Source: Escherichia coli (lineage in GTDB: Bacteria; Pseudomonadota; Gammaproteobacteria; Enterobacterales; Enterobacteriaceae). From it: 64,000 bases of DNA. Under the pieces are notes generated by a model that was given only the letters and a program-made list of their open reading frames with translations, searched no databases and was not told where the DNA came from. Of this stretch, positions 1,905-54,390 are shown piece by piece. Position 1 is the stretch's first letter, and every line of letters begins with the position of its first letter. The stretch is taken from the NCBI RefSeq assembly GCF_003334405.1, contig NZ_QOWM01000012.1. One strand, 5' to 3'. The position numbers and the translations under genes were made by a program.

Positions 1905-2040
1905 ATAATTTTTATGTGAATAATCAATAGATTGAAAAATGGGCGGAAAGGCCATTTCCGGTCTGGTGGAAATACGCCTGCCGCAGAAAGAACAACACCG
2001 CCCGCAGGCGGTGTTGAGACTGATGACAAACGCAACACTG

Positions 2041-2147: not shown

Positions 2148-3062
2148 TTACTGCAGCAGGCTGGAAACCATGCTGGACATGCTGTTGGACTGTTTCAGCA
2201 TGGTGATGCCGGTCTGCATCAGCACCTGCTGTTTGGTCATATTGGACGCTTCCGTAGCGTAGTCGGTATCCATGATGTTACCGATAGCAACTTCGGTGTT
2301 GTCCTGCATACTGGTCAGGTTATTAGCCGTGTCGTTCAGACGGTTGATAGACGCACCCAGCTTGGACTGGATCTGCGAAACATCATCCATCGCGGTAGAA
2401 ATGCTGGTGATCATCTGGTTAGCCGAGCCAGACGCAGTCAGTTCAGTACCGCCAGAAACGCCTGCGGTGCCTGTGGTGTCTGCCTGATCCGCACTGAAGG
2501 AGTTGCTGATAGCAGAAAGGTCAGTCACCAGCGTGTTCAGTTGGCTAGAGATGTTCACGGTCATGGTGTCGGAAGATTCCGCGCCCACCTGGAAAGTTAC
2601 CGCGCTCTGGAACAGGCCGTCAGTACCGGTGTTGCTGGTGCCGGAAACACCGAACAGGTTGGTGCCGCCGTAGGTGGTGTTTTGCAGCATGTCAGACATC
2701 TGCTGGCCCAGTTCGTCGTATTCGTCCTGCATCGCCTGCAGATCGTCGTCGCTGTAGGTGCCGTTCGCTGCCTGAGTTGACAGGTCTTTCATACGACCCA
2801 GCACGTCAGACATTTCGTCGAACATGCTGTCGGCGGTTTGCAGCATCGCGGTGGCATCATTGATGTTGCTCAGCGCAACATCCATACCGCTGGACTGTGC
2901 TGTCAGACGGTTAGCAATTTGTTTGCCTGCGGCGTCATCGGCAGAAGAGTTAATCCGGTTACCTGTCGCCAGGCGTTCCATAGATGTAGACAGAGAAGAG
3001 CTGCTTTTGCTGATTGCATTAACGGCGGCCATTGAGGCGTTATTGGTGTTAATAGATAACAT
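2148..3062 (-). CDS. lafA: Lateral-type flagellin (short flagellin without large D2/D3 domains)
   Basis: Starts MLSINTNNASMAAVN... at ATG 3062 behind an AAGGAG RBS; conserved flagellin N and C termini (..QVLMQTGITMLKQSNSMSSMVSSLLQ); the track ORF start at 3128 is an upstream in-frame extension. Confidence 0.9.
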   Translation of the reverse strand: MLSINTNNASMAAVNAISKSSSSLSTSMERLATGNRINSSADDAAGKQIANRLTAQSSGMDVALSNINDATAMLQTADSMFDEMSDVLGRMKDLSTQAANGTYSDDDLQAMQDEYDELGQQMSDMLQNTTYGGTNLFGVSGTSNTGTDGLFQSAVTFQVGAESSDTMTVNISSQLNTLVTDLSAISNSFSADQADTTGTAGVSGGTELTASGSANQMITSISTAMDDVSQIQSKLGASINRLNDTANNLTSMQDNTEVAIGNIMDTDYATEASNMTKQQVLMQTGITMLKQSNSMSSMVSSLLQ

Positions 3063-3107
3063 GATACTGCTCCTTGGGATTAATCGTTTTCGTTTCGATA
3101 CCCTGTA

Positions 3108-3133
3108 AAAACGACACCTCGGGAGCAAACTTA
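3108..3133 (-). promoter_or_regulatory. Candidate sigma28-like (class III) promoter for lafA
   Basis: Minus strand TAAGTTT-N11-GTCGTTTT versus the FliA consensus TAAAGTTT-N11-GCCGATAA: good -35, partial -10 (4/8). Confidence 0.3.
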
Positions 3134-3496
3134 AAACCGCCGTTAAAAAAATTTCACTGCGGTTTATCTGATGCCACTTTTAGCTAAAAAAAGCAGAGTT
3201 TAAATTCAGATAAAAAGATTATTAGCAATATCTGCCACATGGCCAGGTATCAAAATATGTCTTTATCAAACGCTTGATATAGTTAAGATTACCATCAATT
3301 AACGCGTTTTCTTCTCAATGTACTGATGCCAAAATTTACATTGCGTTGCAAATAGTACACATTTGGCTATTGTACCTGTCCTGTCATTTCGTTACATTTC
3401 CACGCCATATAGTGATTAAGAATAATCCTATTACCATAAAATATTAATTATCACGCAGAAAAATCATCTTCTCAGGGACGTATAAGACTGTGCTTT

Positions 3497-7834: not shown

Positions 7835-8060
<226 letters not shown>

Positions 8061-16525: not shown

Positions 16526-17455
16526 ATGAGTTTTATTGAATGTTACGAACCGGAATACGTGCGCAATTTTATGACGCAATACCCCGGTTCGCCTTTATAC
16601 GTCCGCAAGGTGTGGAAAAACGAGATTCGCCTGAGCCTGATGCTGACAGAGCCAGAAAGCTGCGAAGCGATGCTCAACGATGTCAGGGCCTTTGATTTAC
16701 AGCTCACCTACCGTCCTGTGGAAGAAAATGCCGCAGAGCTTTCCGCGCGCGATGCGATAGTAAACCAGGTGATTTTGAGTACCCTCACGCTCCGTGATTT
16801 AACACCAGAACTGTCATTGTATGCCGTCGGTATCCTGCTCTCCCGCGCCAGTAAAATGCCGGGCAGAGACGGAGATATTCTTGCCCGTTTGACGACGCTG
16901 CCGCAGGCGCTGGCCGATCATGCGAAAAAAGGCATCCTACAGGCACAGTTCGCCCAGCTGCCGCCCGTGCCACAGCTGGTGCGTCACCTGGCCACGTTAC
17001 TCGGGAGTTTTACGTTTGACTGGTCGATTTTGCCGGAAAGCCCGCGCAAAACTTCGCTGCCGTTGCAGATGCCTTTGCTGACGCTGCATGACGCTAACAG
17101 CGAAGCCCTGTTACAACAGCAGCTTCAGACGCAGTGGCAAACCACCTGGCAACAGCATTTTGCCACCGCGCCCTGGATGATGCGTAACTGGCTGATTTAC
17201 CGCGTTTACCACGATGTGATTGGGCAGACTGACGGGGCGGATTATTTCCCGCTGGTGTGCGATTTTTATCTCCTCCGCACGTTAATCAGTTTATGGACGC
17301 TGGATGGTTCTTCGCTGCGGCAGGAGGATATTTTCGCCCTCTTTGCCATGTTTGAACGCTGGCGAGCCAGTGAAAATGCGCTGTTGGTTCGCCAGCAAAT
17401 TCAGTCGTTATGTGCCGCCGACCCGCTGCTTTCAGCGTTTTCGCTGCTAACGTGA
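16526..17455 (+). CDS. Hypothetical protein in the flagellar modification island
   Basis: 309-aa ORF from MSFIECYEPEYVRNF.. (RBS GGAAG); Gln/Leu-rich, no family recognised by eye; codirectional with lfgN and the glycosyltransferase gene. Confidence 0.5.
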   Translation: MSFIECYEPEYVRNFMTQYPGSPLYVRKVWKNEIRLSLMLTEPESCEAMLNDVRAFDLQLTYRPVEENAAELSARDAIVNQVILSTLTLRDLTPELSLYAVGILLSRASKMPGRDGDILARLTTLPQALADHAKKGILQAQFAQLPPVPQLVRHLATLLGSFTFDWSILPESPRKTSLPLQMPLLTLHDANSEALLQQQLQTQWQTTWQQHFATAPWMMRNWLIYRVYHDVIGQTDGADYFPLVCDFYLLRTLISLWTLDGSSLRQEDIFALFAMFERWRASENALLVRQQIQSLCAADPLLSAFSLLT

Positions 17456-17457
17456 GT

Positions 17458-17600
17458 CGCTCTGTGCGCGCTTTGCCCCTCACCCTAACCCTCTCCCCAA
17501 AGGGGCGAGGGGACCGATCGAGCACAGTGTTAAAATCGGCGCTGATTTTCTCCCTCTCCCTGTGGGAGAGGGTTGGGGTGAGGGCATCAGCGCGCACATT
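17458..17600. repeat. GC-rich imperfect inverted repeat, boxC-like intergenic element
   Basis: gcccctcaccctaaccctctccccaaaggggcgagggg ... ctctccctctccctgtgggagagggttggggtgagggc; the family assignment is from memory. Confidence 0.4.
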
Positions 17601-17633
17601 CATCACATTCACCCATTAACTCACCCAAACACC

Positions 17634-20078
17634 ATGCCAACACCAACCATCATCAAAACACTCAACACCCACCGCGAAAAACCGTTTGTCAGCGTCGTCA
17701 CGCCAACCTGGAACCGCGGCGCATTCCTGCCGTACCTGCTCTATATGTACCGCTATCAGGATTACCCGGCAGACCGCCGCGAACTCATCATCCTCGACGA
17801 TTCCCCACAAAGCCATCAACACATCATCGACCGCCTGACCAATGGCACGCCGGAAGCCTTTAACATCCGCTACATCCATCACCCGGAAAAACTGCCGCTG
17901 GGCAAAAAACGCAACATGCTCAACGAACTGGCGCGCGGCGAATACATCCTCTGCATGGACGATGACGACTACTACCCGGCAGATAAAATCTCTTACACCA
18001 TCGCCATGATGCAAAAACACCGGGCGCTCATCTCCGGCTCCGATCAGATCCCCATCTGGTACAGCCACATCAACCGCATCTTTCAAAGCCGCAGCTTTGG
18101 CCCGCATAACATCCTCAACGGCACCTTTTGCTATCACCGTAACTACCTGAAAAAGCACCGTTACGACGATGATTGCAATTTAGGCGAAGAGAAACGTTTC
18201 ACCGACAATTTCAGCGTAAACCCGCTGCAACTGCCCGGCGAGCGCACGATTCTGTGTATCTCGCATAGTCAAAACACCTTTGATAAAGATTTTATTCTCG
18301 GGGCCAGCACGCCAGTAAACGCGGCGCTTACGGATATCGTCCGCGATCCGCTGCTGCGCAATGCTTATCTGAGTCTGCATAACGCCACTCATCACCAGGC
18401 GATCAACCATCAGGCGATCGATCAGATCGTTCTGCTGAATCTGGATAAACGCCCGGATCGCTTACAACAGATCCGTGAAGAACTGGCATTGCTGCATATT
18501 CCACCTGAGAAGATCACCCGCCTTGCCGCCAGTGAAGATGAAAACGGTCAACGGGGCCGCCGTCAGTCGCACTTACAGGCGCTGCGCCTGGCGCAACAGC
18601 ACGGCTGGCAAAACTACCTGCTGCTGGAAGATGACGCGGTTATTCTCAAGCAGGAGAAACATATTCAGGTACTGAACACGCTGCTGGCGAGCCTGGCGAA
18701 AATTCCCTGGCAGGTGATGATCCTCGGTGGCGAAATTTCGCAGGGAACGATGCTAAAAAGTTTGCCGGGGCTGGTGCACGCGCGGGACTGCCGCAAAGTG
18801 TGCGCGTATCTGGTGAACAGCCGCTACTACCCGCAACTGGCGCAGCAGATGAGCAACGATGAGCACTCGCTGGAAGCCTGCTGGCAGCCGCTGCTACGCG
18901 CCGACAAATGGCTGGCCTGTTACCCGAGCCTTTGCTACCAGCGACCGGGTTTTAGTGATATCGAGAAAAAAACGACTGATAATATTGCTCACTATTTCAA
19001 TAAGTTACCCGTAGCCACCAAGCCATCTACATTACCCATCGCCGATACCATCGGCTTTTTTATGGAAACCTCATTCCACTACACGCTGTACCGCCCAATC
19101 ATCACCGCTCTACAGGCGCAGGGGCAGAGCTGCACACTAGTGATCAATGACCGCGTGTTTAAACCGTTTCTTGATGAGATGCTGGAAACACTGAAAAACA
19201 TCGACGATCCGCAGCTTAAAGGTATGCGTCTGTCAGAAATGCAGACACATGGTCAGCGGGTGAAATGCCTGGTCAGCCCCTACCACACGCCTGCGCTCAA
19301 TGGCCTGGCGGCGGTGAACATCCGCGCTATGTACGGCTTAGCCAAAGAGACGTGGAACCACGCCGACTGGAATCGTTTTTACCAAAGCATTTTGTGTTAT
19401 AGCCACTACAGTCAGCAGGCGCTGGCGCATTTCGGCAGCGCAAAAGTGGTCGGCAACCCGCGCTTCGACGCCTGGCATAACGGCACGTTCGATCGCGCGT
19501 TGCCGGAAAACATCCAATCAGATTACCGTAAACCTACGGTGCTCTATGCCCCAACGTTTAGCGCATTAAGCTCCCTGCCCCACTGGGCTGAAAAATTGGG
19601 CCGCTTGAGCGGTGATGTGAACCTGATTTGCAAACTGCACCATGGCACCTGCTCACGCCCGGAAGAAGCAGCATCGCTGGCCCTGGTGCGCAGGCATTTA
19701 AAACAGCGCACCGACTCCGCCCGCCACACGCTGGCGCTGCTGGCAAAAGCCGATTACGTGCTGACCGATAACAGCGGGTTTATTTTCGATGCTATCCACG
19801 TTGATAAGCGGGTGATCCTGCTCGACTTTCCGGGCATGAATGATTTGCTCGACGGTGAGAAAAGTTATTCCACGGCAGAGAGCGCCGACCAGCGAATCCG
19901 CGAAATATTGCCGGTTGCTCATGATGTTGCAGAACTGCGTTATTTGTTGTCAGAGGCGTTTGACTGGGGGTCGGTGCAGGCGCGGCTTACGGAGATTCGC
20001 CATCACTATTGCGATGCGTTTATGGATGGCAAGGCGGGAGAACGGGCGGCGATTGTGATTGTGGAGGCGCTGGGGTAA
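17634..20078 (+). CDS. Three-module putative glycosyltransferase: GT2-like N terminus, GT25-like middle, TagF-like CDP-glycerol glycerophosphotransferase C terminus
   Basis: N terminus VSVVTPTWNRGAFLP..ILDDSP..CMDDDDYY (GT2 DxD); middle IVLLNLDKRPDRLQQIREEL.. (GT25-like); C terminus PTVLYAPTFS.. and YVLTDNSGFIFDAIHVDKRVILLDFP (TagB/TagF-like); start taken at ATG 17634 because the track start lies in the repeat. Confidence 0.7.
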   Translation: MPTPTIIKTLNTHREKPFVSVVTPTWNRGAFLPYLLYMYRYQDYPADRRELIILDDSPQSHQHIIDRLTNGTPEAFNIRYIHHPEKLPLGKKRNMLNELARGEYILCMDDDDYYPADKISYTIAMMQKHRALISGSDQIPIWYSHINRIFQSRSFGPHNILNGTFCYHRNYLKKHRYDDDCNLGEEKRFTDNFSVNPLQLPGERTILCISHSQNTFDKDFILGASTPVNAALTDIVRDPLLRNAYLSLHNATHHQAINHQAIDQIVLLNLDKRPDRLQQIREELALLHIPPEKITRLAASEDENGQRGRRQSHLQALRLAQQHGWQNYLLLEDDAVILKQEKHIQVLNTLLASLAKIPWQVMILGGEISQGTMLKSLPGLVHARDCRKVCAYLVNSRYYPQLAQQMSNDEHSLEACWQPLLRADKWLACYPSLCYQRPGFSDIEKKTTDNIAHYFNKLPVATKPSTLPIADTIGFFMETSFHYTLYRPIITALQAQGQSCTLVINDRVFKPFLDEMLETLKNIDDPQLKGMRLSEMQTHGQRVKCLVSPYHTPALNGLAAVNIRAMYGLAKETWNHADWNRFYQSILCYSHYSQQALAHFGSAKVVGNPRFDAWHNGTFDRALPENIQSDYRKPTVLYAPTFSALSSLPHWAEKLGRLSGDVNLICKLHHGTCSRPEEAASLALVRRHLKQRTDSARHTLALLAKADYVLTDNSGFIFDAIHVDKRVILLDFPGMNDLLDGEKSYSTAESADQRIREILPVAHDVAELRYLLSEAFDWGSVQARLTEIRHHYCDAFMDGKAGERAAIVIVEALG

Positions 20079-20084
20079 ACCGCG

Positions 20085-20172
<88 letters not shown>

Positions 20173-20195
20173 AAATACATCTCTGTTTTAGTACT

Positions 20196-20591
20196 TTATA
20201 AAAGCCCTCTAATCACCTCAATAATCCCCGTCGTCGACACCGACGGCGTGCGGGGGAAATAGACCACCTCACAAATATACGCAAAGCTGTCAAACTTCCC
20301 TGCCCAGTCATCCCCCATCACTAAAATATCCGCACTGTACCCGCGCAAATACTCCGCTTTTTGCTCCAGCGACTCTTCCAGAAATACGCCATCCACGCAC
20401 GCCAGCCCGGCGATGATCGCCATGCGGTCATCCTGATGGTAAACCGGTGCCCTGCCCTTTTTGGCGATGTTCAGGGCGTCGGACGATACGCCGACCAGCA
20501 GCCGCTCGCCCAATGCGCGGGCGCGTTGTAAAAGGCGCAGATGACCGACATGAAACACATCGAAGGTGCCGAAGGTGATGACCGTTTTCAT
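20196..20591 (-). CDS. Cytidylyltransferase of the TagD family (glycerol-3-phosphate cytidylyltransferase-like)
   Basis: MKTVITFGTFDVFHVGHLRLLQRARALG.. has the (H/T)xGH nucleotidyltransferase motif; about 131 aa; ATG 20591 lies 3 bp after the lfiJ stop; the track ORF start at 20729 is an extension. Confidence 0.75.
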   Translation of the reverse strand: MKTVITFGTFDVFHVGHLRLLQRARALGERLLVGVSSDALNIAKKGRAPVYHQDDRMAIIAGLACVDGVFLEESLEQKAEYLRGYSADILVMGDDWAGKFDSFAYICEVVYFPRTPSVSTTGIIEVIRGLL

Positions 20592-33691: not shown

Positions 33692-33900
33692 AACTGCCGG
33701 ATGCGGCGTGAACGCCTTATCCGTCCTACCGTTCAGGCACAAGTTTGTAGGCATGATAAGACGCGCCAGCGTCGCATCAGGCATCTGCGCATAACTGCCG
33801 GATGCGGCATAAACGCCTTATCCGGCCTACCGATCCGGCACAAGTTTGTAGGCATGATAAGACGCGCTAGCGTCGCATCAGGCATCTGCGCACAATTATG
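33692..33900. repeat. REP/BIME cluster adjacent to rayT
   Basis: Four REP units: gccggatgcggcgtgaacgccttatccgtcctac, gtaggcatgataagacgcgccagcgtcgcatcaggc, and a second similar pair. Confidence 0.85.
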
Positions 33901-34393
33901 AAATGATACGCTCCCCGGCACTAAAATCCGTTACGTCCCCCGCCCAATCGATGGGATATAACCCTCGCGCGACATCGCGATGGAACGTTGAGAATGGCCA
34001 ATCACTCACTTGCTTTACCCAACCATGCTTTACTGGATTTATATAAATATAATCAACATGATGCCTATAATCTTTGGTATTGCGGATGGCGTGCTCCCAA
34101 AAACGTGGTTGCCAGATATTTTTCAATCCACAAGCATGGGTAAATTGCTTTTTAATTTCCCGCCAGCGCGAGGAAAAATCATCATCGCCTTCAGGTAATG
34201 TCCAGATACAGTGCATATGCTCTGGCAAAACGACCCAGGCGTTGATTTCAAAAGGCCTGTCTCGCTTAACTTTAATAATGGCGTGACGGAGCATCTGGTA
34301 CTGGGTGGTCAAAAGTTGGCTTCGACGATTTCGTAAATTCACCGTGAAAAACCATGTTCCCCCCTTGATGTAATAACGACGATATTCAGACAT
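33896..34393 (-). CDS. rayT: REP-associated tyrosine transposase (IS200/IS605-like TnpA_REP)
   Basis: 165-aa ORF with an HuH motif (..LPEHMHCIW..) and catalytic-Tyr region, flanked by REP clusters. Confidence 0.8.
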   Translation of the reverse strand: MSEYRRYYIKGGTWFFTVNLRNRRSQLLTTQYQMLRHAIIKVKRDRPFEINAWVVLPEHMHCIWTLPEGDDDFSSRWREIKKQFTHACGLKNIWQPRFWEHAIRNTKDYRHHVDYIYINPVKHGWVKQVSDWPFSTFHRDVARGLYPIDWAGDVTDFSAGERIIS

Positions 34394-42611: not shown

Positions 42612-42651
42612 GTGGGGGTTGTGTTTAAGGACGGGGAGAGTCGGGGTATTA

Positions 42652-43788
42652 CTACGAAAGCCCGCTCCCCGCAAGGACTGACGCCAGGTAGTTTCTGTCC
42701 ATGGCTGCTTTTCGCATCTTACGTCTTAACCCTGCCTTGAATACCTTCTCATTCGTCAAAATATTAATAGCAATGTGCCGTATCCCTGAAAATAATTCTG
42801 CTGCGTTTCCTCTTCTTATTTTGTAGTCGTCTTCATTCATTACCACGTCCAGACGCCTGTGCAGCTTATTCTCCACGTGCCAGTGGTTTCGGATTGCTGT
42901 GGCGAACTTCTCTGCGGTTAAATCAGCAGAACTGATATAATATCTGACCGTCATTTCTGGCTCTTTCTTTTGTTCTGCTATTATTGACCGAAAGGAGACT
43001 GCCACGCATAATTTCTTCAGCCCTTTCCATTCAAACGTGAAATCAATAAGTTCATCAGGGACATCGCAAACAATATGAAGACGGATTTCTTCTCTGCCGT
43101 GACTCTTTTCACTCATTGCGTAACTGTCATGCGCTGGATTATTTAATTCTTTCAGCGGAAATTTTTCCTCAAAGGCTTTATTTAGCCGCCCCTGGTTTCC
43201 TTTTACCGCGAATAAATAATCACCTCCCTGTTTTTGTATCTTCTCTGCAATATCTTTCTGGCAACCCATCGCATCAGTTGTGATGATTTTTCCTTTAATA
43301 TCCAGCATGTTAAGAAGTTCTGGGATAGCTGTAATCTCATTAGATTTCTCATCCGTCCTGATCTGTCCGATGACCAGACTGTGCATTGTTGAGAACGCAC
43401 TAATGACATGAATCGCTCCCTTGCGGCGACTCTTGTCATAAGAATGCCGGAGTGTTTTTCCATCAATTGCGATGACGTCTTTATCATCTGAAGTATGGCA
43501 ATCTCGCATCCAGTTAATAAAGCACTCGTGAAATTTTGAAGGACTGATACAGGATACAACTCTGGCGATGGTATCGTGAACAGGAATACCATTTTCAAAA
43601 TCACCATATTGTTTTAAAAAATCGAGATGTGTTTCCCCAAAATCCTCTATATCTTCCCAGCCTTCTGCACCAGAAATAACGGCACAAATAGTCAACAGTA
43701 GAATATCCGATAATTTATGTTCCACTTTCCAGGCTTGTCTGTAATCGGGGATAATAGAAATATGTTCCATCAATTTTTTAAGTTCCAT
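42652..43788 (-). CDS. ISAs1-family (H-repeat-associated) transposase
   Basis: 378-aa ORF, apparently intact, with an H-repeat/ISAs1-type transposase sequence; the element ends were not mapped. Confidence 0.8.
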
Positions 43789-44218
43789 TTTGTTCTCCTT
43801 AATTATGTAAGGAGTATTTGATCATGTATAAGCAATAAAAAACAGCTTCAGGTAATGAGGAATATCTCAATTTTTAAACATAAAATGCGAATTATTTAGT
43901 ACAAAAAATCAGCGTTACGTGATCTTTCCCTGCCCCTGCGCTCACTACCATGGCTCTTTACCACAGCAGCCGGGGTTGTTTGGGACCGACTTCCGACAGC
44001 AGATCCCGGTGGGCCTGCCACCATCTCTTCACAAGCTTATGCTTATTACATGCAAAACGTCCCGTTTTGCATCTTTGTGCCTACGGCACACCGGTGATCT
44101 TTCCCTGATGAGGGATATATTAACTATTGAACATTAGCGCGAATTATTTAGTGCAAAAAATCAGCATCACGTGATGCTTTTCCTGCTATTAATAACCTCC
44201 TCTATTTAACTATATTTT

Positions 44219-44611
44219 TCATTGATGCAATTCGTAGATTTGAAGAAGTTCAACTGCCACATTTTTATTTTTACTATCGCAATTTTTATACCATACCCAT
44301 GCTTCCGTATTTTTTACTTTTTTTAAATCATCCATAATAAAATCCCCACCAAAAACAGTAAAATACAATGTTTCCTCATTAAAAATAAAACTCACTGCCC
44401 CCCCCTCTTTTATTTTAATTTCCGCTTCATTTGTGTTCAAATCAACTTTTTTAATTACTCCATGTAAGTTGGGTTTTGATAGTTTTTCTACGCCACCATC
44501 AGGAGCGGGTAATATACATCGTTTAAGAACTTTAGCATTTGCACATCCAATAACCCAAATTAGAATGCACACTCCCATGTTAATCGCATTAACGTGTCTT
44601 AAAACGTTCAT
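44219..44611 (-). CDS. Candidate immunity lipoprotein for the adjacent Rhs C-terminal toxin
   Basis: Small AT-rich ORF immediately downstream of and overlapping the Rhs tip; internal Met gives the signal-peptide/lipobox-like start [15 protein letters not shown]. Confidence 0.4.
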
Positions 44612-46017
44612 ATCTAATTCTCTCTCCAGGATGCGAATACATCCAACTTGTCACTTTCTTACACAACTCATCTACATCTTCATTCTGTGCACGGGTACAT
44701 CCCATAGTTGGTTTCCAGCCTTGTCGAGGAGCATAAGGATCGCGCAACGATGATCCCCCACCATGTAGCCATCTTGCTCTAGTATCTGTAGTATAGATCT
44801 TCGTTGTGCCATATGCTGCCGATATTCCTGATTCATTTGTCTCACAACCAACGACTTCACCTGTATATGGATCACCAGCACCACGTTGAGAACGACGATC
44901 AATTCTATTGCTACTATCAAAAGTCATTGAATCACCTGTTTCAGGATCATAATAAATAGTCACTCCTCCAGTCATATCAGTAAGAACAAGAGGAGTTTCA
45001 GCACCTGCCCGGTCTGGAGCGGGAGGCCCATATACACTTATAACTCGTTCTAACCCCAGTGGATCAGTGTAACGTATTGGTACCAGTGGATACGTGTATA
45101 GATTTATTCCCCCCTTCAACCCTATCGGATCCTGGGTGATATACCGCCCCTGCAACGGATCGTAGTACCGGTGACGGTTGTAATACAGTCCCGACTCCTC
45201 ATCATACTGCTGCCCCGGCAGACGGAGTGACTGTTGAAGGTGCTGCGCACTGGTTTCGCCCAGCAGGTTTCCCCATTCGTCATACTCCCCGCACCACGCC
45301 GTTTCCCCTTCCGGGCTGATAAGCGCCTGCGGCAGTCCCCGGTGGTCACAGTGGTAAAGATGAAGTTTCCTCTCCGGGATGTATTCCGCCTCCATCTGCG
45401 CGGCCATCTGTTCCGCCGTCAGCCCGCACTGCGCAAGCCATGCCTCACTCTCCGCACTCACCGCTCCCGCGCGCAGTTCCCGCTCCAGCCTCCCCAGCAT
45501 CACCGCCAGCTCCGCCGGGAGCGTCACACCCGTGTCCTCCTGCAACACCTCCGCCAGGCTCCGGTGCCGCGCCTTCGCCTGTTCGCCATTCTCTGTTTCG
45601 ATTCTGATGAGCGGCGTGAAGCTCCCCGGCTGGTATACCGTCTGGATACGCGTGGTGCCGGTCTGTACCGTCGTCAGCCTGTCACCGTCCCACCCGTACC
45701 ATGTCACCTCCGGTTTACGCGACAGCGACATCCACCCCGTCAGGTCACGCTCCCGCCGCCATACCCGTTTTCCCGTCCGGCGGCCCAGCGGGTCATAGAG
45801 GTACCGGCTCTCCACCTGTGGTTCGCCGTGCTGTATCCGCGTGTAGAACACCAGGCGGTGCTGGCTGTCGTAGTGGTAGTGGTGGGTCCGCTCGTCGTGC
45901 ATCCGTATCACCCCTTCCGGGATGCGGTCCGTCTTCTCCGCCAGCCTGCCGTATTCATCGTGGCGGTAGACATAGTGCGCATCTTCCGCGATGCGGTTAC
46001 CCGGCGTTTTCCCCGAT
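44589..46017 (-). pseudogene. Orphan Rhs C-terminal fragment: distal core, DPxGL boundary and variable C-terminal toxin domain
   Basis: ..[31 protein letters not shown] followed by a ~150-aa divergent tip; no N-terminal Rhs core; the frame stays open upstream of the track start to about 46017. Confidence 0.7.
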
Positions 46018-48511
46018 GCTGGTTGAGTGGCTTAAAGAGGGCTGGCTGCTGGCGTCGGCTGAGATGCAGCACAGCGAACTGCGCGGCGGCGTGTTGCTGC
46101 TGGCCCTGCTGCATTCGCCGCTGCGTTATATACCGCCTGCTGCCGCCCGGCTGTTGACCGGCATTAACCGTGACCGTCTGCAACAGGACTTTGTGCAGTG
46201 GACACAGGAGTCGGCGGAATCAGTCGTGCCGGATGCAGACGGTAAAGGCGCAGGCACAATGACGGACGCCTCTGACACCCTGCTTGCCCGCTATGCCAAA
46301 AACATGACCGCAGACGCCCGTAACGGCAGGCTTGACCCGGTACTGTGCCGCGACCACGAAATCGACCTGATGATCGACATTCTCTGCCGCCGCCGTAAAA
46401 ACAACCCGGTGGTGGTGGGCGAAGCGGGCGTGGGCAAAAGCGCACTGATTGAAGGGCTGGCGCTGCGCATCGTGGCAGGCCAGGTGCCGGACAAGCTGAA
46501 AAACACCGATATCATGACCCTTGACTTGGGCGCATTGCAGGCCGGGGCGTCGGTGAAGGGTGAATTCGAAAAACGTTTCAAAGGGCTGATGGCGGAGGTC
46601 ATTTCCTCCCCGGTGCCGGTCATTCTGTTTATCGACGAAGCACATACCCTGATTGGCGCGGGCAACCAGCAGGGCGGGCTGGATATCTCCAACCTGCTCA
46701 AACCGGCGCTGGCGCGCGGCGAGCTGAAAACCATCGCCGCCACCACCTGGAGCGAGTACAAAAAATACTTCGAAAAAGATGCCGCCCTGTCGCGCCGCTT
46801 CCAGTTGGTGAAGGTCAGCGAACCCAACGCTGCCGAAGCCACCATTATTCTGCGCGGTCTGTCGGCGGTCTATGAACAGTCTCACGGCGTGCTGATTGAT
46901 GATGACGCCTTGCAGGCCGCTGCGACATTAAGCGAGCGTTATCTCTCCGGGCGTCAGTTACCGGACAAAGCGATTGATGTGCTGGATACCGCCTGCGCCC
47001 GTGTGGCCATCAACCTGTCGTCGCCGCCGAAGCAAATCTCGGCGCTGACCACTCTGAGCCACCAGCAGGAGGCGGAAATTCGCCAGCTTGAGCGCGAGCT
47101 TCGCATCGGACTGCGTACCGACACATCACGGATGACAGAGGTGCTGGTGCAGTATGATGAAACGCTGACGGCGCTGGATGAACTGGAAGCGGCCTGGCAC
47201 CAGCAGCAGACGCTGGTCCGGGAGATTATCGCGCTGCGCCAGCAGTTACTGGGCGTGGCAGAGGACGATGCGGCGCCGTTGCCGGACGCAGATACCGTGG
47301 AGGATACGCAGCCAGAGTCAGAGTCAGAACAGGATAATACCGGTGCCGTACCGGCTGATGAGGCCGACAGAGAACAACCGGAAGAGACCGCTGAAACAGT
47401 TTCCCCGGTACAGCGGCTGGCCCAGCTCACTGCCGAACTGGACGCCCTGCATAACGACCGGTTGCTGGTCTCCCCGCACGTCGATAAAAAACAGATTGCG
47501 GCGGTGATTGCCGAATGGACCGGCGTGCCGCTCAACCGCCTGTCGCAGAATGAAATGTCGGTCATCACCGACCTGACGAAATGGCTGGGTGACACCATCA
47601 AAGGCCAGGACCTGGCGATTGCCAGCCTGCATAAGCATCTACTGACCGCACGCGCCGACCTGCGTCGTCCGGGACGCCCGCTCGGTGCGTTCCTGCTGGC
47701 TGGCCCCAGCGGTGTGGGTAAAACCGAAACCGTCCTGCAACTGGCAGAGCTGCTCTACGGCGGTCGCCAGTACCTGACCACCATCAATATGTCCGAATTC
47801 CAGGAGAAACACACCGTCTCGCGGCTGATTGGTTCGCCTCCGGGCTACGTTGGCTACGGTGAAGGCGGCGTACTGACCGAAGCGATTCGTCAGAAACCCT
47901 ACTCGGTAGTACTGCTCGATGAAGTGGAAAAAGCGCACCCGGATGTGCTCAACCTGTTCTACCAGGCGTTCGATAAGGGCGAAATGGCAGACGGTGAAGG
48001 CCGCCTGATTGACTGCAAAAATATCGTCTTCTTCCTGACGTCCAACCTCGGCTACCAGGTAATAGTCGAGCATGCCGATGACCCGGAAACCATGCAGGAA
48101 GTACTGTATCCGGTGCTGGCCGACTTCTTCAAACCTGCCCTGCTGGCGCGTATGGAAGTGGTGCCGTATCTGCCGCTGTCGAAAGAGACGCTCGCCACCA
48201 TTATCGCCGGAAAACTGGCCCGTCTGGATAACGTGCTGCGCAGTCGCTTTGGTGCAGAAGTGGTCATTGAACCGGAAGTGACGGACGAAATCATGAGCCG
48301 CGTCACCCGCGCGGAAAACGGCGCGAGGATGCTGGAATCGGTCATCGATGGCGACATGCTACCGCCGCTCTCGCTGCTGCTGTTGCAGAAAATGGCGGCT
48401 AACACGGCGATTGCCCGGATTCGGTTGTCGGCAGTGGACGGCGCATTTACGGCAGACGTGGAAGATGCTCAGAACGACGAGTCCGTCACAAAGGATGAAA
48501 CGGTTTTATGA
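46017..48511 (+). pseudogene. clpV: 5'-truncated ClpV/TssH (type VI secretion AAA+ ATPase)
   Basis: Two AAA+ modules (GEAGVGKS.. and GPSGVGKT..) preceded by only part of the N domain; the first ~100 codons of the track ORF are antisense to the Rhs fragment. Confidence 0.7.
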
Positions 48512-49170
48512 GCAGGTTGCGCGTTTTCCGGCAGACAGGATGGTTTATCGCGGGCCTGATGACGGGCTTACCCGCCACTGCCGCGCCCGCAGAAGCATCG
48601 TCAATGGCCGGTGTGGCGGTCGCCGTCGCCACCACGACCCCGCCGGATGCGACAGCCACGTTACAGGCCATACAGTCCTGTCGGCGGGAGTCCGCGGCGC
48701 TGGAGCGGCTTGACTGCTATGACCGCCTGCTGGCACCGCTGTCCCCGTCAGGGTTTGACGGGGCGCTGGTCAAAGCCGGTTTTGTGGGCGAGGCCTGGAC
48801 CCGCGCCACAGAGCAGGAAAAACGCCGCGAGGGCAACACCACAGAACTGCTGGTGACGCAGGTGCCGGGGGAGCGCCCGACGGTGGTGATAACCACCCCG
48901 GCTATCGGTCATGTTCCGCCACGCCCGGTGCTGATGTTCAGTTGCGTGGACAATATCACCCGGATGCAGGTGGCGCTGATGCACCCTCTGGATGTCCATG
49001 ATATCGCCGTCACTCTGAATGCCGACAACCGGGCATTGCGCAGCCACTGGTTTGTGCGCGAGAACGGCACCCTGCTGGAGTCCAGCCGGGGGTTATCCGG
49101 GATTGATGAAATTAAGCAACTGTTCGGCGCAAAAACGCTGACGGTGGATACCAGGGACGACGTATCGGGC
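48508..49170 (+). CDS. VasI-like T6SS-associated periplasmic protein; 3' end appears fused to the tssM fragment
   Basis: Signal peptide and a ..AALERLDCYDRLL.. motif; start overlaps the clpV stop (ATGA); the reading frame switches into tssM-homologous sequence near 49170. Confidence 0.4.
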
Positions 49171-49175
49171 CTTAT

Positions 49176-51074
49176 GTGGAACAGACCTATCTGCAACTGC
49201 TGGAGCAACGTTACCTGCCCTCGCTGTTTAACGGGCTGGTCAAAGCGATGAACGCCGCGCCGCCGGAGAGTGAAGAAAAACTCGCGGTGCTGCGCGTAAT
49301 GCGAATGCTGGAGGACAAAAGCGGACGTAACAATGAGGTGGTGAAGCAGTATATGGCAAAACGCTGGAGCGAAAAATTCCACGGCCAGCGCGATATCCAG
49401 GCACAACTGATGTCCCATCTTGACTACGCGCTGGCTCATACTGACTGGCATGCAGAGCGTCAGGCGGGCGACGGTGACGCCATCAGCCGCTGGACGCCAT
49501 ATGACAAGCCCGTGGTATCAGCACAGAAAGAACTGAGCAAACTGCCTGTCTACCAGCGGGTTTACCAGAGCCTGAAAACGCGGGCGCTGGGCGTTCTTCC
49601 TGCCGACCTCAATCTGCGTGACCAGGTAGGGCCAACCTTTGACCAGGTGTTTACATCTGCCGATGACAACAAACTGGTTGTTCCACAGTTTCTTACCCGT
49701 TACGGCCTGCAAAGCTATTTTGTAAAACAGCGCGATGAACTGGTTGAACTGACGGCGATGGATTCCTGGGTACTTAACCTTACCCGCAGCGTGAAATACA
49801 GTGACGCCGACCGCGCGGAAATCCAGCGCCAGTTGACCGAGCAGTATATCAGCGACTACACCGCCACCTGGCGGGCCGGGATGGACAATCTGAATATCCG
49901 CAATTTTGAGTCCATCGGACAACTGACCGGGGCGCTGGAGCAGGTTATCAGCGGCGACCAGCCTTTGCAGCGGGCGCTGACCGTCCTGCGTGACAACACA
50001 CAGCCAGGCGTCTTTTCTGAAAAACTCTCTGCCAAAGAACGGGAGGAAGCCCTGGCAGAGCCGGATTACCAGTTACTCACCCGCCTCGGGCATGAATTCG
50101 CCCCGGAAAACAGTACCCTGGCAGTACAGAAAGACAAAGAAAGCACGATGCAGGCCGTGTATCAGCAACTCACCGAGTTGCACCGCTACCTGCTGGCAAT
50201 CCAGAACGCGCCTGTACCAGGGAAATCGGCGCTGAAAGCCGTGCAGTTACGGCTTGATCAGAACAGCAGCGATCCGATATTCGCCACCCGCCAGATGGCA
50301 AAAACGCTGCCTGCTCCGCTCAACCGCTGGGTTGGCAGACTGACTGACCAGGCCTGGCATGTGGTGATGGTGGAGGCTGTTCATTATATGGAAGTGGACT
50401 GGCGCGACAGCGTGGTGAAACCGTTTAACGAGCAACTGGCAAATAACTATCCGTTTAATCCGCGTTCTGCACAGGATGCCTCACTGGATGCCTTCGAACG
50501 CTTCTTTAAACCGGATGGCATACTGGATACCTTCTACCAGCAGAACCTGAAGCTGTTTATCGATAATGACCTGAGTCTGGAGGATGGCGATAACAACGTC
50601 ATTATTCGCGAAGATATTATTGCGCAACTGGAAACTGCGCAGAAAATCCGTGACATCTTCTTCAGCAAACAGAACGGTCTGGGAACATCCTTTGCCGTGG
50701 AAACGGTATCGCTTTCAGGCAATAAACGCCGCAGTGTACTGAACCTTGACGGTCAGTTAGTCGATTACAGCCAGGGCCGTAACTATACCGCCCATCTGGT
50801 CTGGCCTAACAACATGCGCGAAGGCAACGAAAGTAAGCTGACGCTCATCGGCACCAGCGGCAACGCGCCGCGCAGTATCAGCTTCAGCGGGCCGTGGGCG
50901 CAGTTCCGCCTGTTCGGGGCCGGACAACTGACCGGAGTACAGGATGGCAACTTTACCGTGCGCTTTAGCGTGGACGGTGGCGCGATGACCTACCGTGTGC
51001 ATACCGACACGGAAGATAACCCGTTCAGCGGTGGGTTGTTCAGCCAGTTTGGTCTGTCAGACACACTGTACTGA
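49176..51074 (+). pseudogene. tssM: TssM (IcmF-like) C-terminal fragment; N-terminal TM/NTPase portion missing
   Basis: About 630 aa resembling the middle and C-terminal TssM regions; too short for a full TssM (>1100 aa). Confidence 0.6.
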
Positions 51075-51084
51075 GGAGGCAGGG

Positions 51085-52437
51085 ATGAATAGTAACGTAC
51101 TGACACAAACTATCGTTACCGGCAGTGACCCGCGCGGGCTGCCGGAATTCAGCGCCATCCGCGAGGAAATAAACAAAGCCAGCCACCCGTCACAGCCTGA
51201 GCTGAACTGGAAACTGGTGGAGTCGCTGGCGCTGGCGATTTTTAAAGCCAACGGTGTGGATTTACACACCGCCACCTACTATACGCTTGCCCGGACACGG
51301 ACACAGGGACTGGCGGGATTCTGCGAAGGTGCGGAACTGCTGGCGGCAATGGTAAGCCACGACTGGGATAAGTTCTGGCCGCAGGGCGGCCCGGCGCGTA
51401 CTGAAATGCTGGACTGGTTTAACTCCCGAACCGGCAATATTCTGCGTCAGCAAATCTCCTTTGCGGAATCCGACCTACCACTGATCTACCGCACAGAGCG
51501 GGCATTGCAGCTTATCTGCGATAAGCTCCAGCAGGTGGAACTGAAGCGCGTTCCGCGCGTGGAGAATCTGCTCTATTTTATGCAGAACACGCGTAAACGG
51601 CTTGAACCCCAGCTGAAGAGTAACACTGAGAACGCCGCACAGACCACGGTCAGAACGCTGATTTATGCCCCGGAAACACAGGCATCTTCCACACCAGAAG
51701 CGGTAGTGCCTCCCCTGCCCGGCCTGCCTGAGATGAAAGTGGAAGTGCGCAGTCTGACAGAGAATCCCCCACAGGCCAGTGTGATAAAGCAAGGCAGTAC
51801 GGTAAGAGGGTTTATCGCAGGGATCGCCTGTTCAGTGGCTGTCGCCTCAGCATTGTGGTGGTGGCAGGTCTATCCGGTGCAGCAGCAACTGTTACAGGTT
51901 AACGACACCGCTCAGGGCGCAGCAACGGTGTGGATGGCCTCACCTGAACTCGAAAACTATGAGCGCAGGCTGCAACAACTTCTTGATACCTCCCCGGTAC
52001 AGCCGCTGGAAACCGGGATGCAGATGATGCGTGTTGCCGACAGTCGCTGGCCGGAAAGCCTGCAACAGCAACAGGCCTCGACACAATGGAATGAGGCACT
52101 CAAAACCCGCGCACAGAGTAGCCCGCAGTTGCGTGGCTGGTTGCAGACCCGCCAGGACTTACATGCTTTTGCAGATCTAGTGATGCAGCGCGAGAAAGAG
52201 GGACTAACCCTTTCCTATATCAAAAATGTCATCTGGCAGGCGGAGCGGGGACTGGGGCAGGAAACACCCGTTGAGTCTCTGTTGACGCAGTACCATGATG
52301 CCCGTGCGCAGAAGCAGAATACAGATGCGCTGGAAAAACAAATTAATGAGCGACTCGAAGGTGTGTTAAGCCGCTGGCTGCTGCTGAAGAATAACGTCAT
52401 GCCAGAGGCGGCAACCGGTACCACGGCCGAAAAATAA
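51085..52437 (+). CDS. ImpA-N-domain T6SS protein with a central TM segment (VasL-like, TssA-related)
   Basis: N-terminal ImpA-like region (..GSDPRGLPEF..LNWKLVESLALAIF..), TM segment GFIAGIACSVAVASALWWW; ATG 51085 with GAGGAGG RBS. Confidence 0.6.
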   Translation: MNSNVLTQTIVTGSDPRGLPEFSAIREEINKASHPSQPELNWKLVESLALAIFKANGVDLHTATYYTLARTRTQGLAGFCEGAELLAAMVSHDWDKFWPQGGPARTEMLDWFNSRTGNILRQQISFAESDLPLIYRTERALQLICDKLQQVELKRVPRVENLLYFMQNTRKRLEPQLKSNTENAAQTTVRTLIYAPETQASSTPEAVVPPLPGLPEMKVEVRSLTENPPQASVIKQGSTVRGFIAGIACSVAVASALWWWQVYPVQQQLLQVNDTAQGAATVWMASPELENYERRLQQLLDTSPVQPLETGMQMMRVADSRWPESLQQQQASTQWNEALKTRAQSSPQLRGWLQTRQDLHAFADLVMQREKEGLTLSYIKNVIWQAERGLGQETPVESLLTQYHDARAQKQNTDALEKQINERLEGVLSRWLLLKNNVMPEAATGTTAEK

Positions 52438-52460
52438 TTATTTAATTAAAGGAGATTATC

Positions 52461-52943
52461 ATGGCAAATATAAGTTATTTATCTTTGAGTGGAGAGACAC
52501 AAGGGCTAATTTCAGCAGGTTGCTCAACGCTTGATTCTGTCGGAAACAAAGCGCAGCCAGAACATAAAGATCAGATCATGGTTTATGCGTTAATGCATTC
52601 CATCTCAAGAAGTCAAAATGTCAATCATCATGAATTAATTATCACCAAACCGGTTGATAAATCCTCACCATTGCTGGCAAAAGCACTTAGTGACAATGAA
52701 AAAATGGCAATATGTGAATTTATACTCTACCGAACCAGTAAAGCGGGTATTTACCAGCCTTATTATAAAATAAATCTGTCAAAAGCCCGAATATCAAGTA
52801 TTGATTTTGTCACACCGCATGCTGTCCTGGAAAAAGAACTGGAACCACAGGAGAGAATTGCCTTTATTTATGAAGATATTTCCTGGGAGCATACGTTAGC
52901 CGGTACGAATGCAATGAGTAAATGGCAGGATCGTGTACAGTAA
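52461..52943 (+). CDS. hcp: Hcp (TssD) type VI secretion tube protein
   Basis: 160-aa ORF with the Hcp-like core ..ITKPVDKSSPLLAKALSDNEKMAICEFILYR.. Confidence 0.8.
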   Translation: MANISYLSLSGETQGLISAGCSTLDSVGNKAQPEHKDQIMVYALMHSISRSQNVNHHELIITKPVDKSSPLLAKALSDNEKMAICEFILYRTSKAGIYQPYYKINLSKARISSIDFVTPHAVLEKELEPQERIAFIYEDISWEHTLAGTNAMSKWQDRVQ

Positions 52944-52986
52944 CTTACTGTAATAACATAATAAATTACTATTGCGGAGAGATAAA

Positions 52987-53901
52987 ATGGCTGGTTTAAG
53001 GAATAACAACAACACACAGAATGCACAGTGGGCTGATTATGTGGGTGACATTCTTCGGGGGGCTCAGCCGATAAACCAGCTAGTACCTCAGCACCCTTAT
53101 CTTAACGACGTCCCACTCATTGATGAGTTAAGGCATCAGAACACTCATCATGTTATTCCCTTGACACTTGATGTTGCAAAAAAAATACTCAGCCCAATAA
53201 CATCATTTGATTACATTCATTTTATCACTACACATCCTTCAGGTATAAAAGATACACTCGCCTGGTTAGTTAACGCGGGTAAATTAATGACTGAGTTTGA
53301 TGACAATGGGAAAATTATATTTAACCTTAATGCCTTAAAGTATACAAAAGCAAGTTACTTTGAAATACTTGGAGAGAAATATATAAAAATCACAACATCC
53401 AGCCCCTGGCTTTTAGAAAAGCTCGGTAAATATATTTTCTCTTCACGAGCGCCTCAAGTTCTGGAACTCGCTATTGGCTGGCGAGGAGCTTTATCTGAAT
53501 CAATAAAAGGAGTTAAGTTCTGTATCTGGTTTTCAGTAGCCTGGAGAACCATAGAATTTATTATGAGTTCAGAGCGAGATCTGGTTAATTTTCTTGGCGA
53601 TTTTTCAATGGATGTGGCCAAAGCAGTTATAGCCGGTGGTGTTGCAACCGCTATTGGAAGTCTGGCTTCTTTTGCCTGTGTTAGCTTTGGCTTTCCAGTA
53701 ATTCTTGTCGGAGGAGCAATTTTACTGACAGGGATAGTGTGTACAGTTGTTTTAAATGAAATCGATGCTCAATGCCATTTATCAGAAAAATTAAAATATG
53801 CAATTAGAGATGGACTAAAACGGCAACAGGAACTTGATAAATGGAAAAGGGAAAACATGACTCCATTTATGTATGTTCTTAACACTCCACCCGTGATATG
53901 A
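52987..53901 (+). CDS. Hcp-linked putative membrane-active toxin with a C-terminal glycine-zipper hydrophobic domain
   Basis: AT-rich ORF directly after hcp; C terminus GGVATAIGSLASFACVSFGFPVILVGGAILLTGIVCTVVL; no family recognised by eye. Confidence 0.4.
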   Translation: MAGLRNNNNTQNAQWADYVGDILRGAQPINQLVPQHPYLNDVPLIDELRHQNTHHVIPLTLDVAKKILSPITSFDYIHFITTHPSGIKDTLAWLVNAGKLMTEFDDNGKIIFNLNALKYTKASYFEILGEKYIKITTSSPWLLEKLGKYIFSSRAPQVLELAIGWRGALSESIKGVKFCIWFSVAWRTIEFIMSSERDLVNFLGDFSMDVAKAVIAGGVATAIGSLASFACVSFGFPVILVGGAILLTGIVCTVVLNEIDAQCHLSEKLKYAIRDGLKRQQELDKWKRENMTPFMYVLNTPPVI

Positions 53902-53910
53902 GGATTAACC

Positions 53911-54390
53911 ATGCGTTTACATGTTAAATTAAAAGAGTTTCTTTCGATGTTTTTTATGGCCATATTATTTTTCCCTGCATTCAATGCTTCTTTGTTTTTT
54001 ACCGGAGTTAAACCTCTATATTCAATAATAAAATGCTCCACGGAAATATTTTATGATTGGAGAATGTTGATTCTGTGCTTCGGTTTCATGTCGTTTTCCT
54101 TTTTAAATATTCATGTAATTTTACTTACGATAATAAAATCATTCTTAATCAAAAAAACGAAGGTAGTCAATTTCGCCACAGACATAACAATACAGCTAAC
54201 TCTTATATTTTTACTAATAGCTATCGTAATAGCACCTTTAATAGCTCCTTTTGTCACAGGATATGTCAATACTAATTATCACCCCTGCGGTAATAATACG
54301 GGAATTTTCCCAGGAGCAATCTATATTAAAAATGGCATGAAATGTAATAATGGATATATTTCTCGCAAGGAAGATTCAGCAGTTAAATAA
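53911..54390 (+). CDS. Small multi-TM inner-membrane protein (YkfM-like by size and position); candidate immunity protein
   Basis: 159-aa AT-rich ORF with three or four hydrophobic segments, 10 bp downstream of the putative toxin gene. Confidence 0.45.
   Translation: MRLHVKLKEFLSMFFMAILFFPAFNASLFFTGVKPLYSIIKCSTEIFYDWRMLILCFGFMSFSFLNIHVILLTIIKSFLIKKTKVVNFATDITIQLTLIFLLIAIVIAPLIAPFVTGYVNTNYHPCGNNTGIFPGAIYIKNGMKCNNGYISRKEDSAVK

Follow-up and report, generated by a model that had tools for sequence, protein, structure and literature searches.

The gene at positions 2148-3062 (minus strand) of the 64,000-nucleotide stretch of Escherichia (E.) coli DNA analysed here, which as a whole is referred to as the window, encodes with practical certainty the filament subunit LafA of the lateral-type flagella (Flag-2) of E. 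coli. The overall explanation that we favor, by analogy with better characterized systems, is that LafA, with its Ser/Thr-containing loops, is probably O-glycosylated by a linked set of enzymes once Flag-2 is switched on. Such a modification is plausible, but the Ser/Thr content of the protein does not imply it; the case for it is made solely by the linked enzymes.

The lafA gene, the Flag-2 locus and the prediction that a Flag-2 flagellin is glycosylated have all been published, i.e., the idea is not new. The E. coli locus was first described by Ren et al. in 2005, as cited in PMC4637896. In a survey of 592 Flag-2 loci, De Maayer et al. (2020) reported that 341 encoded glycosyltransferases, 342 LafV and 235 TagD, and also noted TagB; GT2-1 was the commonest type of glycosyltransferase (222 Enterobacteriaceae). 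They predicted that Flag-2 flagellins are modified by glycosylation, in a teichoic-acid-like manner and by methylation (PMC6993521). Apart from data on the Plesiomonas lateral flagellin, to which legionaminic acid is attached, our search of the literature found no mass spectrometry data on enterobacterial Flag-2 flagellins, including E. coli LafA.

The lafA gene and its locus

The lafA reading frame extends on the minus strand from an ATG at 3062 to a stop codon at 2148-2150 and encodes 304 amino-acid residues. An alternative start, a TTG at 3128, is possible in the listed open reading frame; the ATG at 3062 is the annotated lafA start and yields the canonical flagellin N-terminus, MLSINTN. 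A Shine-Dalgarno sequence, AAGGAG (3070-3075, minus strand), ends 7 nt 5' of this ATG and is conserved in an alignment of the upstream regions. At the nucleotide level the gene shows 100% identity to sequences that carry the annotation "lateral flagellin LafA" in many complete genomes of E. coli, and the protein matches the NCBIfam model NF033376 (lat_flg_LafA_1) with 667.8 bits (cut-off 440) over residues 1-304 of 304. This full-length match, together with the Flag-2 context, bears out the description in a first-pass annotation of a short lateral-type flagellin of about 305 residues. The termini are conserved, as was also stated there; the Pfam domains Flagellin_N (PF00669, residues 4-138, E 1e-34) and Flagellin_C (PF00700, residues 219-303, E 2e-21) are located at the two ends and leave a centre of 80 residues. 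The mass of LafA computed from the sequence is 31,726 Da with Met1 and ~31,595 Da without this residue, which is expected to stay on the protein since it is followed by Leu.

A cross-species alignment of the region upstream of lafA revealed a sigma-28-type promoter motif, TTAAGTT-N12-GTCGTTT, at 3109-3134 (minus strand). The motif occurs once in the 64-kb window, compared to 0.01 occurrences expected by chance. In 18 species, with LafA identities as low as about 45-50%, the motif is conserved along with its spacing. A scan for sigma-70 promoters near lafA returned four sites against 2.5 expected in shuffled sequence, i.e., it performed no better than chance. On the 3' side the gene is followed by an intrinsic terminator hairpin (1993-2016, minus strand), composed of a 10-bp stem with seven G-C pairs and a T-rich tail. 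The 3' untranslated region also harbors REP-type repeats (2008-2158), which include a match to the Rfam family ES036 at 2061-2103 (44.6 bits, gathering threshold 37.6), weaker naRNA4-like matches close by and an inverted repeat in which 2055-2070 pairs with 2102-2117. Because lafA has its own sigma-28-type promoter as well as its own terminator, it is probably expressed late, as a single-gene transcript.

The gene is flanked by lafB (fliD) and lafC (fliS) on one side and by lafZ, lafW and the genes lfgL to lfgA on the other, and the order of lafA and its immediate neighbors (lafZ/lafW and lafB/lafC) is common to about 50 species. Beyond lfgA the locus continues with a variable region, followed by lfiJ to lfiE, lafK, lfiM to lfiR, lfhB and lfhA; the genes lafD to lafU are located past the left end of the window. 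The regulators of Flag-2 include the sigma-54 activator LafK and the sigma factor LafS. Positions 1-44055 of the window are 99.9% identical (BLAST) to strain 300709, in which all Flag-2 genes of this stretch are annotated as intact, and the sole difference in length between the two is found in the copy number of REP elements at 7845-8054. All Flag-2 genes of the window are open.

A single copy of lafA is found in each of 1278 E. coli genomes, out of 5426 complete ones, while E. coli K-12 is devoid of Flag-2. The allele of the window belongs to a minority group, with 44 genomes at least 99% identical to it and 1231 at 95-99% identity. It differs from the common ST131 allele at 33 nucleotides, where 32 of the changes are synonymous and one is non-synonymous (D61G). 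The resulting dN/dS of 0.008 at a dS of 0.17, with dN=0 in the centre of the protein, indicates that the gene is kept functional by strong purifying selection. The comparison of these two alleles yielded no sign of diversifying change in lafA, i.e., of the type of change for which the FliC H antigens are well known.

LafA architecture and Ser/Thr content

An AlphaFold model of LafA, which was based on 33 orthologues and has a mean pLDDT of 73.9, is composed only of the D0 and D1 domains. The D0 helices comprise residues 5-32 and 268-303, while those of D1 comprise residues 40-100, 105-128 and 213-265. The D2 and D3 domains are absent, in agreement with the earlier statement that LafA lacks a large domain of this type. 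The central segment (residues 139-218; 2409-2648, minus strand) is instead made up of a first loop, a conserved block with a beta-hairpin (155-169) and a single extra helix (172-190), and a second loop, which is modelled with low confidence at residues 191-212. Both loops are variable. Loop 1 (residues 138-151, GVSGTSNTGTDGLF; 2610-2651, minus strand) is a loop also in the model and contains insertions and deletions across the 33 orthologues, as does loop 2 (residues 190-216, SADQADTTGTAGVSGGTELTASGSANQ; 2415-2495, minus strand), where the pLDDT is <50 at residues 191-195 and 198-206. The orthologue alignment shows conservation of the block that separates the two loops (GLFQSAVTFQVGAESSDTMTVNISSQL). 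The two peptides quoted in the first-pass annotation as typical of the LafA centre coincide exactly with the variable, indel-bearing loops.

The best solved structures matched by the LafA model in Foldseek are D0/D1-only flagellins or filament cores, and include Shewanella FlaA/FlaB, the Pseudomonas (P.) aeruginosa core, Bacillus (B.) subtilis Hag, a Kurthia flagellin and Caulobacter FljK. LafA shares the two-domain architecture with FlaA/FlaB, Hag, FljK and the Kurthia protein, all matched with a probability of 1.0, although the sequence identity is only 23-34%. In other D0/D1-only flagellins O-glycans are located on the central loops. In LafA, residues 138-151 and 190-216 would make up the exterior of the filament.

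The LafA centre had been described as dense in Ser and Thr, which holds in so far as these residues make up 33.8% of the centre (45% if Gly is included) compared to 26.3% of the whole protein, 21.7% of the N domain and 26.7% of the C domain. The enrichment of the centre over the rest is, however, marginal (hypergeometric P=0.055), and residues 1-45 are as rich as the centre, reaching 37% in 30-residue windows. With Gly included the enrichment is clearer (P=0.007). Across the 33 orthologues the Ser/Thr content of the centre varies from 26% to 39%. The corresponding values are 23.4% for the centre of E. coli K-12 FliC and 11.3% for that of B. subtilis Hag (sequence verified against PDB entry 6gow), both of which we take to be unglycosylated flagellins. 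For the entire proteins, the Ser/Thr content is 26% in LafA compared to 14% in Hag.

A relation between Ser/Thr density and a linked glycosyltransferase was sought across species. Flag-2 loci were gathered from 78 species by means of a search with LfgF, the flagellin was extracted and the variable region was scored for a homologue of the transferase described below; the resulting comparison covers 44 species and refers only to transferases encoded in the Flag-2 variable region. The median Ser/Thr fraction of the flagellin centre was 0.28 for loci with a transferase homologue (n=31) and 0.20 for those with an empty variable region (n=13; Mann-Whitney P=0.08). When the comparison was confined to short flagellins within the distant clade, the means were 0.241 with (n=17) and 0.265 without the transferase (n=9; Mann-Whitney P=0.42). 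In Tatumella and Rosenbergiella the variable region is empty, yet the flagellin centres have a Ser/Thr fraction of 0.28-0.41, and in several loci that do carry a transferase this fraction is only 0.17-0.21. Thus, in these 44 species Ser/Thr density is not significantly associated with a linked glycosyltransferase. The overall trend mostly reflects phylogeny, because the clade of E. coli and Citrobacter is both Ser/Thr-rich and equipped with the enzyme, while Yersinia, where the Flag-2 flagellins are longer and rich in lysine, lacks the variable region.

The lateral flagellins of Aeromonas (A.) hydrophila offer an experimental example; in strain AH-1 their masses equal those predicted from the sequence, i.e., they are unmodified, and in strain AH-3 they are glycosylated (PMC4691044). 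From the lack of a significant association across species and the unmodified AH-1 proteins it follows that Ser/Thr density is not to be taken as evidence of modification, and its use as a pointer to modification, as in the first-pass annotation, was given up.

Candidate modification genes in the Flag-2 variable region

Three genes that together form a candidate modification module are found at 16526-20591, between lfgN and lfiJ. They had been referred to as adjacent to lafA; candidate modification genes are indeed present in the same Flag-2 locus, but at a distance of 13.5-17.5 kb from lafA. The first (16526-17455, plus strand) is located downstream of lfgN and encodes a LafV-like protein of 309 residues, a weak relative of the lysine N-methylase FliB. 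The FliB model NF038110 matches it with 42.6 bits, below the cut-off of 85, over profile positions 105-363 of 373, and a Pfam scan of the protein gave no matches.

The second gene (17634-20078, plus strand) encodes a transferase of 814 residues with three domains, i.e., a GT2 domain (~12-250), a GT25-like domain (~262-455) and a TagF-like domain (~468-814). The N-terminal domain is recognized in Pfam as Glycos_transf_2 (E 2e-17). When the protein and 29 homologues were each scanned, GT2 was found in 17 of the 30 sequences, Glyphos_transf in 12 and Glyco_transf_25 in two; in the 814-residue protein itself the Glyphos_transf (TagF-like) match is weak (E 0.009). An AlphaFold model (mean pLDDT 89.5) displays the three domains. 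Conserved features include a DDDD motif at residues 109-112 as well as H482, H669 and H670. In Foldseek, domains 1 and 2 match the tandem GT-A pair of the human collagen galactosyltransferase COLGALT1, an enzyme that O-glycosylates proteins, and the C-terminal GT-B domain resembles the teichoic acid polymerase TagF from Staphylococcus (S.) epidermidis (target-normalised TM-score about 0.6) and also TarL, another teichoic acid enzyme. The sequence identity to COLGALT1 and TagF is 11-15%. We know of no solved or characterized protein in which GT2, GT25-like and TagF-like domains are combined.

The third gene (20196-20591, minus strand) encodes a TagD-like cytidylyltransferase of 131 residues and starts 3 nt past the end of lfiJ (fliJ). 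The protein matches the glycerol-3-phosphate cytidylyltransferase model TIGR01518 over its full length (E 2e-33), with a score of 115 bits that falls below the equivalog cut-off of 165. This score, together with the weak match of the TagF-like domain, makes the identity of the donor substrate uncertain.

The genes for the LafV-like protein and the transferase are found downstream of, and in the same direction as, lfgA-lfgM-lfgN. The modification genes are therefore embedded in flagellar operons, either by their orientation with lfgAMN or by their position 3 nt after lfiJ. At least 80% of the module is present in 1278 E. coli genomes, a number equal to that for lafA when the two are compared as totals rather than genome by genome. 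From gene location alone we infer that LafA is the protein substrate of the 814-residue transferase.

The closest worked-out parallel is the type A pathway of C. difficile 630 (CD0240-CD0244), which employs the same types of enzymes and is also encoded beside flagellar genes. There, CD0240 (a GT2 enzyme) adds GlcNAc, CD0242 (a cytidylyltransferase) makes the CDP-donor and CD0244 (TagF-like) moves the phospho-linked group to the sugar, such that GlcNAc-phospho-N-methylthreonine is formed on Ser/Thr of the flagellin (PMC10714395). The E. coli module differs in that a single protein, of 814 residues, contains both the GT2 and the TagF-like part, with the GT25-like domain between them, and in that it contains neither a methyltransferase nor a homologue of CD0241. 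Furthermore, because the E. coli cytidylyltransferase is TagD-like, it suggests glycerol phosphate instead of the phosphothreonine of C. difficile.

Lateral flagellins of a type similar to LafA are O-glycosylated in A. hydrophila AH-3 and Plesiomonas (P.) shigelloides. The sugars attached there are nonulosonic acids, either pseudaminic or legionaminic acid. Systems of this type, which is also represented in Campylobacter, employ Maf-type transferases as well. Neither Maf nor pse/leg biosynthesis genes are annotated in the Flag-2 locus, and the three module proteins match no such family; Maf-type glycosylation with nonulosonic acids was therefore rejected as the modification of LafA.

Proposed modification of LafA

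By analogy with the C. difficile pathway, Ser/Thr residues in the LafA loops would, once Flag-2 is switched on, be O-glycosylated in the cytoplasm prior to export of the protein. Conserved Ser/Thr residues at positions 163, 164, 166, 168, 172, 186 and 188 would be further candidate sites. The candidate enzyme is the 814-residue GT2/GT25-like/TagF-like protein encoded downstream of lfgA-lfgM-lfgN, while the TagD-like enzyme would provide the donor, an alcohol phosphate activated with CDP, for which CDP-glycerol is the most likely candidate. These enzymes would give rise to a short glycan composed of one or two sugars with a phosphodiester-linked cap, most likely glycerol phosphate, in analogy with C. 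difficile type A. The strength of this proposal differs between its parts. That LafA is glycosylated at all appears to us somewhat more probable than the opposite, while the phosphoglycerol cap, which is modelled on C. difficile, is put forward tentatively. The same caution applies to the complete proposal, according to which induced E. coli LafA may bear a teichoic-acid-like O-glycan of one or two sugars with a phosphoglycerol cap, made by the fused enzyme and the TagD-like protein; we consider it possible rather than probable.

Alternatively, LafA may be exported unmodified, in which case the loops rich in Ser, Thr and Gly would simply have the composition that small, uncharged, exposed loops usually have in this clade of flagellins, and the transferases would serve another target, for instance a different protein of the flagellum or a polymer of the envelope. 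We regard this alternative as less probable, but it draws on several of the data discussed above, i.e., the whole protein is Ser/Thr-rich (26%) with the buried N-terminal D0 segment equal to the centre (37%), the enrichment of the centre is marginal (P=0.055), the Tatumella and Rosenbergiella centres reach 0.28-0.41 at loci where the variable region is empty, the 44 species display no significant association and the lateral flagellins of A. hydrophila AH-1 bear no modification. It is more difficult to reconcile with the location of the transferase and cytidylyltransferase genes inside flagellar operons, with a genome count that equals that of lafA and with the C. difficile pathway, in which the same set of enzyme types is applied to flagellin; moreover, the locus does not suggest an alternative substrate. 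Modification of LafA by lysine N-methylation, rather than glycosylation, is much less probable still. A weak FliB-like gene, encoding the LafV-like protein, is present within the module, and methylated Flag-2 flagellins have been proposed by De Maayer et al. (PMC6993521). However, the match to FliB reaches only half of the cut-off (42.6 versus 85 bits), lacks the first ~100 profile positions and is accompanied by a blank Pfam result, and LafA contains six lysines, none of which is found in residues 139-218. The weak match and the lysine-free centre make methylation of the exposed centre unlikely, and lysine methylation was rejected as the main modification on these grounds.

A different objection is that Flag-2 could be a silent relic in E. 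coli, such that LafA is never made and the question of its modification is moot. The first described Flag-2 locus, i.e., that of strain 042, reportedly carries a frameshift in lfgC. In strain EC958, where lfgC is intact compared with strain 042, Kakkanat et al. (2015) found normal motility in a lafA mutant, and cultures in LB broth or soft agar at 28 or 37 °C gave no LafA signal on western blots, i.e., neither the protein nor Flag-2-dependent motility was seen under the conditions tested (PMC4637896). Nevertheless, the dN/dS of 0.008 at a dS of 0.17, the open state of all Flag-2 genes in the window, which share 99.9% identity with a locus that is intact according to its annotation, the conservation of the promoter motif in 18 species and the retention of the locus in 1278 of 5426 genomes speak against a relic, and we consider this explanation improbable. 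Glycosylation of LafA by the linked module, upon activation of Flag-2, thus remains the reading that we prefer.

If the proposal is correct, LafA would, to our knowledge, be the first E. coli flagellin shown to be glycosylated, and no other flagellin would be known to be decorated with phosphoglycerol. A practical lesson that applies in either case is that Ser/Thr richness should not be counted as evidence for flagellin glycosylation. The set of enzymes encoded in the Flag-2 locus, on the other hand, leads to a specific prediction of the chemistry, which mass measurements can test. If confirmed, the modification would represent a new flagellin glycan chemistry in a very well studied species, and it would help to explain the purpose of the cryptic Flag-2 system.

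Candidate modification genes of the variable region

The variable region of the Flag-2 locus, i.e., the stretch between lfgN and lfiJ, harbors three genes, which encode a LafV-like protein, an 814-residue transferase and a TagD-like protein. The gene for the LafV-like protein (window 16526-17455, plus strand) is related to that of the lysine methylase FliB, with a match that falls below threshold and a product that is N-terminally shorter than FliB; LafA, the presumed target of the LafV-like protein, contains no lysine within its exposed centre (residues 139-218). The transferase (17634-20078, plus strand) is a fusion of GT2, GT25-like and TagF-like domains, each of which is also found as a stand-alone protein. 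The GT2 and GT25-like domains are similar to the human protein O-glycosyltransferase COLGALT1 (collagen galactosyltransferase). Among cluster representatives, relatives that span the full length of the fusion are scarce, with two at 65% and 40% identity.

The Flag-2 flagellins of Yersinia (loci L058, L059, L069, L073, L077, L079) are 350-407 residues long, with a centre that is rich in lysine and poor in Ser/Thr, and the variable region is absent from these six loci. The flagellins of Tatumella and Rosenbergiella (loci L057, L064, L065, L071, L074) are short and very rich in Ser/Thr (a fraction of 0.28-0.41 in the centre), and the variable region is likewise absent from their loci.

Sequences flanking lafA

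Upstream of lafA, a sigma-28-like motif, TTAAGTT-N12-GTCGTTT, is found on the minus strand (3109-3134). A single copy is present in the window, and the motif is conserved ahead of lafA across 18 enterobacterial species. The -10 element, GTCGTTTT, deviates from the classical FliA consensus GCCGATAA, and the motif may therefore be specific for the lateral sigma factor LafS. The 3' untranslated region of lafA (1993-2158) contains REP-type repeats followed by a strong terminator hairpin; here, a match to the Rfam family ES036 exceeds the gathering score, and naRNA4-like matches are also found. In K-12, a small RNA, FliX, is annotated at the 3' end of fliC.

Repeats and genomic setting

Several REP repeats are found in the Flag-2 locus, and the gene for RayT, a tyrosine transposase associated with REP elements (33896-34393, minus strand), assigned by its position and 99.9% identity to E. 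coli strain 300709, directly adjoins lfhA at the edge of the locus. Between lfgJ and lfgK (7845-8054), the window and strain 300709 carry different numbers of REP-type repeats, which amounts to a difference of ~118 nt. Within the variable region, a GC-rich inverted repeat (17470-17595) separates lafV from the transferase gene, and a 90-nt repeat (20086-20175), with many matching places in every E. coli genome, lies between the transferase and TagD-like genes, whose ends converge here. Beyond the locus, the segment at 42650-54300 is rearranged relative to strain 300709 and contains type VI secretion system fragments, RHS genes and insertion sequences. Among the 1278 lafA copies in the E. coli genome collection, two are carried on plasmid-labelled records.

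Conservation of LafA within E. coli

Two lafA allele groups are found in E. coli. Comparison of the window copy (2148-3062) with that of a second genome (L002:20001-20915) yielded a DNA divergence of ~3.6%, a single residue difference and a dN/dS of 0.008. The FliC H antigen is hypervariable; in contrast, LafA shows almost no variation within the species.
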